Source: Escherichia phage MLF4. From it: a stretch of 64,000 nucleotides of DNA. The stretch is from sequence record NC_055780.1; one strand, 5' to 3'. Below are positions 16,301 through 32,927 of the stretch, in pieces (positions within the stretch are counted from its first letter, which is position 1; each line of letters opens with the position of its first letter). Position numbers and translations under genes: made by a program. The notes below the pieces were generated by a model. The model saw only the letters and a program-made list of their open reading frames with translations, had not been told where the DNA came from and did no database searches.

Positions 16301-16329
16301 GTCTAAATACCATGTAATAAATATATCTA

Positions 16330-16337
16330 TATTTATA
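16330..16337 (-). promoter_or_regulatory. late promoter TATAAATA (uvsW)
   Basis: plus-strand TATTTATA 30 nt upstream of uvsW ATG at 16300. Confidence 0.65.
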
Positions 16338-16350
16338 CTGAGGAAATATT

Positions 16351-21067: not shown

Positions 21068-21094
21068 TGCGCTTTCCTTTTGGTTTATATGATT

Positions 21095-21102
21095 TATTTA
21101 TA
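21095..21102 (-). promoter_or_regulatory. late promoter TATAAATA (gene 24)
   Basis: plus-strand TATTTATA 28 nt upstream of ATG at 21067. Confidence 0.7.
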
Positions 21103-21117
21103 CCATAAAAACAACTA

Positions 21118-21138
21118 AAGGGACCCGAAGGTCCCTTA
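21118..21138 (-). terminator. intrinsic terminator after gene 23 (AAGGGACC-CGAA-GGTCCCTT + U-run)
   Basis: hairpin 13 nt downstream of gp23 stop, followed on the minus strand by TAGTTGTTTTT. Confidence 0.75.
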
Positions 21139-21150
21139 AATCGTCAAAGA

Positions 21151-26534: not shown

Positions 26535-27026
26535 TTATTCCCAATAATCGAGAGCAAGAGTTACTTCAAAGGTTTGGATTTCATTGTTTGAATCCCAATC
26601 TAATTGAAGTTCACCCACGTTAGTAGGCCACAGACCTTTAATTTCAATTTCTTTTGTTACTGTTTTAGCATCACGAGCATATTGACGAACAATAGCGCTC
26701 TTTTTATACTCTGCAGGTTTTCCACCAGTAATTTCGTTTCCTTGACCAGCAGCAATGCTTTGCCAATCAACAAACTTCTGACGAGCATCATGAGCTTCAT
26801 CATTCATCACTGTAACAGTCCAGTCATCGAATGTACGATCGCCTGCCACGTTAATTTTACGGTTCATAAATCCGACTGGAATTTTTTCTACAATACCAGC
26901 TGGTAAAGCAGTGGCTTTACATTGGAACGTAAAATTTTGTCCAAGATAAGAAATTTCTACTTGGAATAAGTTAGGTCGAGCAAAATCACCAGATTCAAAC
27001 GCTCGTGTTACATCATCTACAAACAT
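26535..27026 (-). CDS. 19: tail tube protein gp19
   Basis: 163 aa as in T4 gp19; synteny with gp18. Confidence 0.9.
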   Translation of the reverse strand: MFVDDVTRAFESGDFARPNLFQVEISYLGQNFTFQCKATALPAGIVEKIPVGFMNRKINVAGDRTFDDWTVTVMNDEAHDARQKFVDWQSIAAGQGNEITGGKPAEYKKSAIVRQYARDAKTVTKEIEIKGLWPTNVGELQLDWDSNNEIQTFEVTLALDYWE

Positions 27027-27099
27027 ATTAGCCTCTGTAGTATTTATATCCCTATGTTTAACCTAGGGCATATAGAATTAAAGAATTAAGGATATAGTG

Positions 27100-27107
27100 T
27101 ATTTATA
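27100..27107 (-). promoter_or_regulatory. late promoter TATAAATA (gene 19); second copy at 27041..27048
   Basis: two plus-strand TATTTATA matches 15 and 74 nt upstream of gp19 ATG; distal one directly follows hairpin GGCCTG-CCGAAA-CAGGCC (27109..27126). Confidence 0.6.
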
Positions 27108-27133
27108 TGGCCTGCCGAAACAGGCCTTTAGAA

Positions 27134-27778
27134 TCATTCTAGTAAATCCCAAAGATCTACGCTATTTCTTTTTGACTTTTCTCGGTTAGATTCCCAAGTG
27201 ATTATTTCTAAATTTTTTACACTTGCTATAATTTCCGGCGGAATTAAATTATCAAATCCATATTTGATAGATACTTTATGATCGAGTTGATAAGCACCTT
27301 CTACGCCGCACATTCCTATTTTATCAGCATTCGGCCATTTTGACCAGATTTTTCTTATTTTAGCTGACTTAGTTATAGAATGAACTCTACTAGCATATAA
27401 TGCAAACTCTTTTCTTTTGCCAGTCCATCGAGGATGTTTATCACCTCTTTGCCATGGTCTGCTTATTCCAGATTGAACTTCCGAATTTTTAATAGAAACT
27501 TGTTTAATGCTACATTTTCTACATGCATGTGTGGGTGTTCTATTTAAAAGTTGAATGCTTCTACTAAATTTAGTACCACACAAATCACATTTAGCGTCAA
27601 CTATTTTATTACTATTCTTTGGCATTAATTCTATTGGAACAGATACTGTATCATGATATGATACTTTATATCCCAGAATTGTCGACCACATTTTTGAATG
27701 ATTTCTTGGTTTTATTGTAACAAACTTAGAAATAATCACTTGTTTCCTCGAGAATAGGGGCCGAAGCCCCATAATCAA
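27134..27778 (-). CDS. freestanding HNH-family homing endonuclease (putative)
   Basis: 214-aa ORF inserted between genes 18 and 19; Cys pairs CDLC...CRKC (zinc-finger-like) and C-terminal AYQLDHKVSIKYGFDN...NLEIITWESNREK resembling an HNH/HNN core; start codon uncertain. Confidence 0.6.
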   Translation of the reverse strand: MIMGLRPLFSRKQVIISKFVTIKPRNHSKMWSTILGYKVSYHDTVSVPIELMPKNSNKIVDAKCDLCGTKFSRSIQLLNRTPTHACRKCSIKQVSIKNSEVQSGISRPWQRGDKHPRWTGKRKEFALYASRVHSITKSAKIRKIWSKWPNADKIGMCGVEGAYQLDHKVSIKYGFDNLIPPEIIASVKNLEIITWESNREKSKRNSVDLWDLLE

Positions 27779-29758
27779 TTAACCTGCAAGACCAGTTAAC
27801 TCATCAAAATCTGCACCGGTAGCAGTTGCGACGAAATTAAGTTGGATATAATTTATACTACGAGCCGGTTGGATGTAGAATGTTGCAACAAACTCATTTC
27901 TATCAATTACTGACGGAGTGTTATTTGTTGTATCGCAAACTACACGATATTCATAAATTCCACCGAGAGCTTTAATTCCCTGTAAGTACTGGGCAGTTTC
28001 TGTGCGGAATGATGAACGAGTAAACGCATTGTTTAATTCGAACAAACGATATTTTGAACTACGTCCGATATTCGTTTTCAACATATTAAACAGACGACGA
28101 ACGTTAATACGATCAAATGGAGAAGGAACAGAAGTAGCTGTTTTATCACCATACAATACGTAACCATCACCACCTGTACCAGTTACCGGGTTGATAGCTT
28201 CTTGGTATAAACGGTCGCGCTGAGCCTGGCGAGTTTCAATAGCAAGTTTAATAACGTTAAGAATCTGGCCACGATTATAACCAGCTGGAGACATCCAAGT
28301 CTGAGAAACGTTATCGGTTCTCGCGCATAAACCAGCAATATCAGCTGCTAATGGAACCCAACGATTCACATCATTATATTTGTCATACTGATATTTGTAG
28401 TTGCCATCGATTGCTGCATAGGTTGAACTGATATTAAAGTTATTATCAGTGTATGAACCTGCTGCAGTTCTCCAATTGACTAAGTTATCAACAGCACGGG
28501 TTACAGGAATTCCAACTACAGTTTCACGCGGTGGTGAGCACAATACTAAGCAATCCTGGCGAGCATCACCAATTGAAACGACGTGTTTTTGGACAGTAGA
28601 TGCTGTTTCTAAAGATTCACCAGCACAAGAACCCGCAATAAACAGTTGAACGTCAACAGATTCACGGTCAGCAAAGAAGTCCCAAGCTTCCATCAAATCT
28701 CCTGCTGTTACTTCAGCATTTGATGATAATCCACCAGACAGAGTTAAAATTCCAGAGAAGCCTTCTGGCCAGTTTTGTGCAGTTGCAAAAATATATTCTG
28801 AGCCGCCTTTTGCGAAAAAGTCATCGATATAGATGTTACTATCGTAAATATCTTTTTCGCCACGCTTAGTTGAAAGAACAACGCTTTGAACAATAGCATC
28901 ATTACGACGAACTATAATAGCGTACTGTGAATCAGTTTGTGGTCCGTATCCAAACACCGCTTTAGCAGTAGATGCACGAGTACCACCACCTGGATAAATT
29001 GGGAGTAATGCAGAAGCGCCTTTCGCATAGTCAGCTTTAGATACGATTTCAATTTCAATTTTATCGCCTAATTCGCCTGGATAGAGAGCTACTACTCCTG
29101 GAATTCCATATTTTTCAAGATTTGCCTGAAAATCAACTGCTGTCATAGCAGTTTCAGCGCTCTCGATTTCAGCTAATAAAATACCGGAATCAGTAATAAT
29201 TTTTCCAAGAGTTATTACTGCAGCTAAACCGGAAGAAGATGAAGAAATTTCTGCAGTCCAGCTAGAACCTAATGCTGGGTATTCGCCAACTTCTTTAGCT
29301 TTAGCAATAATTTTTGCAGTAGGAATATTAATTTTCTTAATTTTTCCATCTGCGTCTACTTCAGTAATTTTACCTTCAGTTTCAATATCATCTGAAACAT
29401 ATTTGACCGTGATTTTATCTCCAACTGCATAGTTACTACCTGGGGTAGAAATTGTGTATTCAATATTACCAGCAATTGGCGATGAGTTTTTAGCGGTATC
29501 TCTATCAACAGCACGAACTACTCGTAAGTCATTTCCGTACTGCAAGAAATTCATCGCAGACATAAAGTAGTCAGCTGTTTCAGCGGTTGGTTGACCAAAA
29601 GTATTAACTAAATCTACTTCATTTGTAACCTGTTTAATCTGAAAAGCAGGACCCCACTGGAATTTACCGGCCAAAGCTGCTGTACCAGTAGAGTTATTAA
29701 CCACGGTGCTTTGAACCGTAGTTTCTTTGAGCTCAATGCCCGGAGATAATAAAGTCAT
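27779..29758 (-). CDS. 18: tail sheath protein gp18
   Basis: 659 aa, identical length to T4 gp18; late promoter upstream. Confidence 0.95.
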   Translation of the reverse strand: MTLLSPGIELKETTVQSTVVNNSTGTAALAGKFQWGPAFQIKQVTNEVDLVNTFGQPTAETADYFMSAMNFLQYGNDLRVVRAVDRDTAKNSSPIAGNIEYTISTPGSNYAVGDKITVKYVSDDIETEGKITEVDADGKIKKINIPTAKIIAKAKEVGEYPALGSSWTAEISSSSSGLAAVITLGKIITDSGILLAEIESAETAMTAVDFQANLEKYGIPGVVALYPGELGDKIEIEIVSKADYAKGASALLPIYPGGGTRASTAKAVFGYGPQTDSQYAIIVRRNDAIVQSVVLSTKRGEKDIYDSNIYIDDFFAKGGSEYIFATAQNWPEGFSGILTLSGGLSSNAEVTAGDLMEAWDFFADRESVDVQLFIAGSCAGESLETASTVQKHVVSIGDARQDCLVLCSPPRETVVGIPVTRAVDNLVNWRTAAGSYTDNNFNISSTYAAIDGNYKYQYDKYNDVNRWVPLAADIAGLCARTDNVSQTWMSPAGYNRGQILNVIKLAIETRQAQRDRLYQEAINPVTGTGGDGYVLYGDKTATSVPSPFDRINVRRLFNMLKTNIGRSSKYRLFELNNAFTRSSFRTETAQYLQGIKALGGIYEYRVVCDTTNNTPSVIDRNEFVATFYIQPARSINYIQLNFVATATGADFDELTGLAG

Positions 29759-29786: not shown

Positions 29787-32927
<3,141 letters not shown>

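Follow-up and report, generated by a model that had tools for sequence, protein, structure and literature searches.

What is a small open reading frame doing between the tail sheath gene (18) and the tail tube gene (19) of a T-even phage, at a place where T4 has a 116-nt spacer alone? The question is raised by a 64,000-nucleotide stretch of Escherichia phage MLF4 (sequence record NC_055780.1; the whole of this stretch is referred to below as the window). Free-standing homing endonucleases shape which genes win in co-infection and are a source of programmable nucleases, and a review of the mobile elements of T4 lists no endonuclease at the 18/19 site (Edgell, 2010, PMC2988022). An earlier, sequence-only reading of the window had proposed that the frame encodes an HNH-like homing endonuclease directed at the 18/19 junction of endonuclease-free relatives. 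The results presented here make it probable that the product is a free-standing homing endonuclease of the HNH superfamily, with the conserved 3' end of gene 18 as its predicted target.

Gene order and translation start

The region is Tequatrovirus-like, with 98-99% identity to Ec_O157kw, Aplg8 and T6, and the order of genes on the minus strand is 17 (large terminase), 18 (27779-29758), the frame under study, 19 (26535-27026; the tail-tube gene is named 'tail fibers protein' in several records) and 20 (portal). The list of open reading frames places a frame of 214 aa, counted from a TTG, at 27134..27778 on the minus strand, and thus between genes 18 and 19, as the sequence-only reading had it. 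The span given in that reading stands, whereas its start does not: the TTG (27776-27778) falls in a noncoding leader, and the available sequence evidence puts the true start at a GTG codon at 27739, 39 nt inside those coordinates. The coding sequence (27134..27739, minus strand; TGA stop at 27134-27136) then encodes 201 aa, corresponding to T6 gp19.1 (ORF160) and to PHROG 5104. This assignment is based on several facts: a ribosome-binding site, GAGG (27746-27749), lies 6 nt ahead of the GTG; every member of the family in an alignment of 30 full-length homologues starts with MIISK; the match to the PHROG 5104 profile (E=7.6e-82) opens at the residue encoded by the GTG; the T6 annotation also has 201 aa; and frame-breaking indels, of lengths that are not multiples of three, are found upstream of the hairpin described below, so that the leaders of the 15 carrier loci vary by +1, +4 or -1 nt or the ATG is missing, with the frame from the GTG intact in all 15. 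In the structure model, residues 6-9 already form a confidently modelled strand.

The frame is a real gene rather than a chance one, since pN/pS is 0.08 among 11 copies of the type found in T6 and in the window (T6-type; 19 synonymous versus 6 non-synonymous segregating sites), homologues are present in 242 phage records, and a profile search retrieved 6400 cluster representatives (50%-identity clusters) at E<=1e-3, and 1659 at E<=1e-10.

Two other loci of the window were looked at in the same way, given that the sequence-only reading described the sites occupied by seg genes in T4 as empty here, and they agree with that description. At 21068-21150 there is an 83-nt spacer between ORFs of 521 and 427 aa (genes 23 and 24), and at 16301-16350 a 50-nt gap, which we take to be the T4 segE site, between ORFs of 226 aa (inh) and 503 aa (uvsW), these flanking genes being judged by size and order only. 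Spacers of just 83 and 50 nt make the T4 segD and segE sites look empty.

A cassette with a precise empty site

The sequence-only reading had suggested that the empty site be sought by alignment, and an alignment of the window, T6 and T4 exhibits it: 644 nt (27135..27778, minus strand) take the place of 8 nt, TACGGTGC, of the 116-nt T4 spacer. The left edge of this cassette is just past the stop codon of gene 18 and the right edge within the stop codon (TGA) of the endonuclease ORF itself, the T4 spacer being a clean, precise empty site. The cassette consists of a hairpin with a UUCG loop, a ribosome-binding site and the ORF. Its 5' noncoding leader (27740..27778, minus strand) holds both the GAGG and the hairpin, GGGGCUUCGGCCCC (27757..27770, minus strand), which follows directly after the gene 18 stop and is identical in T6-type cassettes and in those of a second type, named after RB3 (see below); the cassette of Shewanella phage Thanatos-2 is headed by the same hairpin, GGGGCTTCGGCCCC. 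Because the hairpin lacks a U-run, its role is probably in stability or partial termination. Its fold is no better than that of shuffled sequence (z = -1.3), which leaves the idea that it sequesters the ribosome-binding site unsupported.

Past the cassette, the sequence shared with T4 comprises a native hairpin, GGCCUGUUUCGGCAGGCC (GGCCTGTTTCGGCAGGCC; 27110..27127, minus strand), which follows gene 18 in T4 and the endonuclease gene here, then two late-promoter motifs, TATAAATA, on the minus strand (27100-27107 and 27041-27048), and finally gene 19. The location of the ORF between the 3' end of gene 18 and the late promoters of gene 19, also part of the sequence-only reading, is borne out by these positions. 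Both motifs are downstream of the endonuclease gene, which therefore has no late promoter of its own; no such motif was detected by a pattern search in the interval from gene 18 to the ORF, the nearest upstream copy on the same strand (29787-29794) preceding gene 18. A scan for sigma-70-type promoters likewise gave no candidate in this interval, and the number of motifs in the region was not above that in shuffled sequence. Given the absence of a late-promoter motif in front of the ORF, its mRNA would likely come from read-through of the gene 18 transcript.

Distribution among phages and horizontal movement

About 519 Tequatrovirus records matched the region at >=95% identity. The T6-type protein (>=95% identity) is encoded in ~68 of them, about 13% of close relatives, and an RB3-type cassette is present in another 48 (about 9%). 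The 115 records that span the whole 2-kb query are made up of both types together, since the two cassettes share their ends; counting all 115 full-coverage megablast matches as T6-type was accordingly rejected. The remaining three quarters or so presumably have the empty site of T4, which was the state of 17 of the 32 Tequatrovirus loci sampled. Occupation is also patchy in another genus, where one locus (L021) is occupied and two (L020, L022) are empty. Presence of the gene at this site in all relatives, which the sequence-only reading had named as evidence against homing, is thus contradicted by T4 itself and by about three quarters of its relatives.

The leaders and first codons of T6-type and RB3-type cassettes are identical, the final ~110 coding nt are near-identical (84% identity over the last 234 nt), and no alignment is possible for the central ~380 nt. 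In the encoded proteins, the N-terminal part of the RB3-type (205 aa) has 30% identity to the T6-type and 59-71% to a lineage from Klebsiella, Shewanella and other phages, and its C-terminal part finds its best match, with 88% identity, in the T6-type. The RB3-type is, by these resemblances, a chimera of two lineages in which the presumed recognition half has been exchanged. In the GenBank records of RB5 (L005, 2463-3225), RB6, RB7, RB9 and RB10 the RB3-type ORF is intact, with 205 aa, and unannotated. Three entries assigned to phages of other hosts probably are contaminated or mislabelled: Pseudomonas phages vB_PSGBLB0006 and PsgM02F have a T-even region with 98-99% identity to the window, and Staphylococcus phage SAJK-IND one with an RB3-type gene, whose product is 49.8% identical to that of the window.

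Beyond close relatives, the gene was found directly 3' of the tail-sheath gene in all 11 phage lineages inspected, among them T6 and RB5 (Tequatrovirus), VR7 (where it is also named gp19.1), KP185, Acinetobacter phage Tonic, Bp7, PSD9, Thanatos-2, phiM7 and an IMG/VR contig. In Sinorhizobium phage phiM7 the homologue follows the sheath gene, yet the next gene is not the tail tube gene. Scans of the IMG/VR and JGI metagenomes gave few loci. The presence of the same endonuclease family at this position in many genera identifies the 3' side of the sheath gene as a long-standing landing site, and not the place of a one-off insertion. Genes 19 and 20 of Bp7 are separated by an additional annotated HNH endonuclease (L008, 3769-4731), and the portal gene of this phage is annotated in two pieces, which may reflect a second invasion beside the first, with the portal gene disrupted or mis-annotated.

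So constant a position, kept even in phiM7, together with the purifying selection on the gene, is what would be expected of an old accessory gene of the tail module, inherited vertically with many losses and having a cellular or virion function unrelated to mobility. The identity matrices of the endonuclease and gp18 disagree with this, making such a history very unlikely. The gp18 proteins of the window and RB5 are 99% identical and their endonucleases 49%; for Bp7 and PSD9 the values are 99% and 37%. Conversely, the RB5 endonuclease has its nearest counterparts in KP185 and Thanatos-2 (62-64%), whose gp18 are 65-71% identical to that of RB5. Vertical inheritance also fits poorly with the chimeric nature of the RB3-type, with the absence of the gene from most Tequatrovirus records, T4 included, and with the invariance of the catalytic nuclease residues described below. 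It follows from the incongruence of the matrices that at least three deep lineages occupy the 18/19 site and have moved between genera. Two marks of T-even homing endonuclease genes can thus be recognized in this family, namely presence or absence at a defined site (8 nt in T4 versus 644 nt here, with patchy carriers) and lateral spread (incongruence with gp18 and a chimeric RB3-type).

A predicted, divergent H-N-N nuclease domain

The protein can be divided into two halves. The first, residues 1-95, contains a four-cysteine zinc ribbon or treble clef (27512..27589, minus strand) formed by C51, C54, C73 and C76, near-invariant residues (C54 invariant, the other three conserved in >=90% of 30 homologues). 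This region gives weak matches to the treble-clef model DUF4379 of Pfam, in 12 of the 30 members, and to PHROG families of homing endonucleases and HNH endonucleases, and the zinc ribbon is presumed to belong to a DNA-binding half. The second half, residues 96-201 (27137..27454, minus strand), is predicted to be a divergent HNH-like nuclease domain of the beta-beta-alpha-metal class. Its catalytic core (27176-27292, minus strand) includes D153-H154 (27278-27283), N176 (27212-27214), N185 (27185-27187) and K188 (27176-27178), and D153, H154, N176, N185, R186 and K188 are invariant in the 30 full-length homologues. The paired cysteines and the C-terminal DH...N...N pattern to which the sequence-only reading had drawn attention are therefore present and conserved. 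When 60 diverse C-terminal domains were compared, with 27-63% identity to that of the window, the only invariant residues were D, H, N and N. N176 lies within NL and N185 within NR.K, an H-N-N variant of the HNH motif.

The features that characterize the HNH superfamily could be recognized one by one: a catalytic His preceded by Asp (D153-H154), a structural Asn and a metal-binding Asn or His (N176 and N185), and the beta-beta-alpha fold, seen in a structure model with pLDDT of 88.6 for the full length and 94.9 for the C-terminal domain. A domain profile lines up the DH with the catalytic DH of the HNH domain of SaCas9, with a non-significant E of 0.28. Sequence searches by themselves failed to give the assignment: no Pfam HNH model matched the window protein even at E<=10, no NCBIfam model matched it, and single-sequence and profile searches of the PDB were equally unsuccessful, the top profile matches in the PDB, leucine-rich repeats that matched the NL..N motif by chance, being discarded. 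One of the 30 family members matched Pfam HNH_4 (E=0.078), and a Foldseek search of the full-length model against the PDB returned nothing significant. Since no Pfam HNH or NCBIfam model is significant, the assignment is founded on the motif together with the fold. Its divergence puts the domain beyond the reach of every Pfam HNH model, and PHROG 5104 itself carries the label 'unknown function'; placement in a non-nuclease family, which would have spoken against the sequence-only reading, did not come out of any of the homology searches.

The same C-terminal domain follows helix-turn-helix arrays in two phage proteins (P0186, P0188) and a DUF7487 domain in three others (P0046, P0129, P0132); the N-terminal half of P0129 matches PHROGs annotated as 'homing endonuclease'. 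The domain thus seems to behave as a portable nuclease module, a modularity typical of homing endonucleases, and the protein belongs to a large HNH-like clade missed by domain libraries. P0046, a distant member of the family in which DUF7487 is joined to the HNH-like domain, comes from contigs that reach about 190 kb and contain a gene for a ribosomal S21-like protein, and two otherwise collinear contigs (L051 and L052, 4868-6060) differ by four small genes right after it.

The failure of Pfam HNH models to match, the lack of the cysteine pairs of many HNH domains, a weak start codon and the absence of an own promoter could all be understood if the gene encoded a DNA- or RNA-binding protein, such as a regulator, with a degenerate, inactive HNH fold, or if it were a decaying endonuclease. 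This is highly improbable, given that the general-base His, its Asp partner and both Asn remain invariant in domains as divergent as the 60 compared, and that a low pN/pS goes along with a full-length ORF in every one of the 15 carrier loci. A different role for an active HNH protein is known from HK97-like cos phages, in which it is a helper of the terminase, and in the window the endonuclease gene comes second after that of the large terminase (17). A packaging function of this sort is nonetheless scarcely conceivable: the gene and that of the terminase are not neighbours, DNA is packaged without the endonuclease in T4 and most relatives, and T4 gp17 is annotated with nuclease activity of its own. 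A predicted active endonuclease with a role in its own mobility remains the reading that we favor.

Selection and the 3' end of gene 18

The low pN/pS and the retention of the full ORF in all carrier loci show that copies of the endonuclease are under purifying selection, with function retained. Estimates of diversity are biased by the choice of carrier loci, since nine of the 15, six of them T6-type and three RB3-type, came from top BLAST hits; no weight is therefore given to the finding that carriers are less diverse in gene 20.

The flanks of the cassette were then compared in 14 carriers and 14 empty-site loci, with separate alignments of gene 18 and of a segment that starts 105 nt ahead of gene 19 and ends 1.5 kb past it. 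The association between nucleotide state and presence of the endonuclease gene was flat, with one exception: in the final ~85 nt of gene 18, divergence between carriers and non-carriers (dxy) reached 0.128, versus about 0.03 elsewhere. The flank towards gene 19 was almost invariant in all genomes, with no association. The haplotype that tracks the endonuclease extends over 27806..27862 (minus strand; nt 1897-1953 of gene 18); the sampled T6-type carriers are near-identical in it, differing among themselves at three sites only, and their differences with non-carriers are synonymous save for one Gln/Thr codon. This end of gene 18 encodes PARSINYI.LNFVAT.TGADFDEL, conserved from T4 to phiM7, and conserved coding motifs are the kind of sequence typically targeted by homing endonucleases. 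Several of the carrier-specific variants (CTT AAT TTC; GAT TTT) agree with the end of gene 18 in carriers from other genera, which would fit co-conversion from a foreign donor.

The exact 56-nt haplotype was found in 58 records, to be compared with about 68 T6-type carriers. T at nt 1923 (27836) together with C at nt 1929 (27830) was present in 14 of 14 carriers and in one of the 14 empty loci; these two states were rejected as carrier-specific markers, because the empty-site phages RB14 and SG1 have both. Indeed, three empty-site loci, L040, L056 (RB14) and L057 (SG1), share 1923T/1929C, all of them with an additional 1935G within the last 60 nt of gene 18. These phages could be descendants of a precise loss, naturally resistant alleles or representatives of the ancestral T6-type background, and because they share the two states, the association could also result simply from linkage to the lineage that received the gene. 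Taken with that caveat, the 27806..27862 segment is a candidate for the recognition or cleavage site, or for a co-conversion tract, and the target would likely be within the last ~85 nt of gene 18 and not at the intergenic junction. The interpretation as a homing endonuclease of predicted HNH type made in the sequence-only reading is thus strengthened by the empty site, the distribution, the incongruence with gp18 and the flank haplotype, and the junction proposed there as target gives way to the end of gene 18 as the likelier one.

These data can be put together in a model for the propagation of the gene. The endonuclease would be produced late, by read-through of the gene 18 late transcript past the UUCG hairpin and from its weak GTG start. 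During co-infection with an empty-site relative, the protein would recognize the conserved 3' end of the resident gene 18 and nick or cut it, as the phage HNH enzymes MobA and MobE do. Recombination-dependent repair, as it operates in T-even phages, would then copy from the carrier the 644-nt cassette and a few dozen adjacent bases of gene 18, and the carrier's own gene 18 end would be protected by its synonymous changes.

The same nuclease features would be expected if the protein were mainly a weapon against competing phage genomes (marker exclusion) or against host or defence DNA, with copying of the gene as a by-product. T-even homing endonucleases do cause exclusion of the markers of a competitor (Edgell, 2010, PMC2988022), and a link between SegB and escape from immunity has been reported (PMC13096335). 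Strict association with one site and clean cassette boundaries, on the other hand, are predictions of homing, none of the results obtained here connects the gene with defence systems, and we regard a primary role as a weapon as unlikely.

Implications

A broader interpretation that joins these observations can be offered tentatively, as one that we hold possible but would not bet on. The protein would be part of a large unrecognized clade of H-N-N nucleases without a Pfam model, to which the 6400 representatives belong, and the T4-like members of this clade, in three or more deep lineages, would make up a guild that competes for the 3' end of the sheath gene across Straboviridae genera and Emdodecavirus, changing specificity by swapping N-terminal modules and keeping the catalytic module and the cassette ends. 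The swapping of modules is included because the T6-type/RB3-type pair suggests such an exchange. If this broader interpretation were true, the 18/19 site would constitute a natural system for the study of displacement and re-targeting of homing endonucleases.

If the product is a homing endonuclease, a gene of the classical phage T6 that is nearly always called 'hypothetical' would acquire a testable function, and 18/19, a site absent from the T4 catalogue, would be added to those of homing endonucleases. The T6-type/RB3-type pair, with the same ends and catalytic domain and different recognition halves, would be well suited to studies of how specificity is encoded, and inheritance of the tail-gene region would be biased in mixed infections, a point of relevance for phage engineering and therapy cocktails. 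It would also mean that current domain libraries miss a very large HNH-like family and, therefore, that many 'hypothetical proteins' of phages could be re-annotated as nucleases.

Comparison with known systems

PHROG 5104 and T6 gp19.1 (ORF160) are the same protein family as the window protein, the T6 copy being 98.5% identical. In public records the protein is a 'hypothetical protein' almost throughout, with 'HNH endonuclease', 'homing endonuclease', 'type II restriction endonuclease' or 'putative head morphogenesis protein' in single records; the last of these labels is the one used in the RefSeq entry of T6 (NC_054907). A literature search returned no experimental study of this protein, and the matches to 'gp19.1' concern phage SPP1.

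Among the closest systems are small HNH nicking endonucleases, such as Gme HNH (4h9d), the HNH of phage GVE2 (5h0o) and T5 SciA (9qgx), together with the HNH domain of Cas9. A second set is formed by the Hef-like proteins (Hef of phage U5 and F-LimVII, VIII and X of LIMEstone1), free-standing phage endonucleases earlier described as unlike any known family. There are points in common with them: F-LimVIII is located at the same gp18/gp19 junction, and distant members of the present family share DUF7487 with the Hef-like proteins, so that the present family draws on the same pool of DNA-binding modules. The nuclease of the LIMEstone1 F-Lim proteins is a Vsr/DUF559-like PD-(D/E)xK domain, these proteins have 490-600 aa, F-LimVIII is on the opposite strand, and a Pfam scan of the window protein found neither the DUF7487 nor the Vsr/DUF559-like domain of F-Lim proteins. 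A relationship with Hef was consequently rejected after the LIMEstone1 Hef-like proteins had been scanned (hhalign probability of about 1%). In Dickeya phage LIMEstone1 itself (L055, 13129-14919), the unrelated F-LimVIII gene lies between the tail-sheath and tail-tube genes, in the opposite orientation, so that more than one family of endonuclease genes is attracted to the 18/19 junction.

A third set is formed by the free-standing or intron-encoded HNH homing endonucleases of phages, exemplified by the Mob proteins of T4 (MobA-E) and I-HmuI. Mob proteins have an HNH_3-type N-terminal nuclease with NUMOD/AP2-like modules. Their HNH domain comes first and is followed by a C-terminal region (Edgell, 2010, PMC2988022), whereas the order is reversed in the window protein, with the nuclease at the C-terminus and a zinc-ribbon module as DNA-binding half, and no sequence relationship is detectable, judging from the absence of Pfam HNH and NUMOD matches. 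Yet, like the mob genes, this one is a small intergenic T-even gene beside a conserved essential gene, sporadic among relatives, and its product joins an HNH-type catalytic core to a separate DNA-binding part. By analogy, it is the Mob proteins that the endonuclease would resemble most in its predicted function, and the T6-type protein can be seen as an ordinary, uncharacterised representative of a class of homing endonucleases common in T-even phages.
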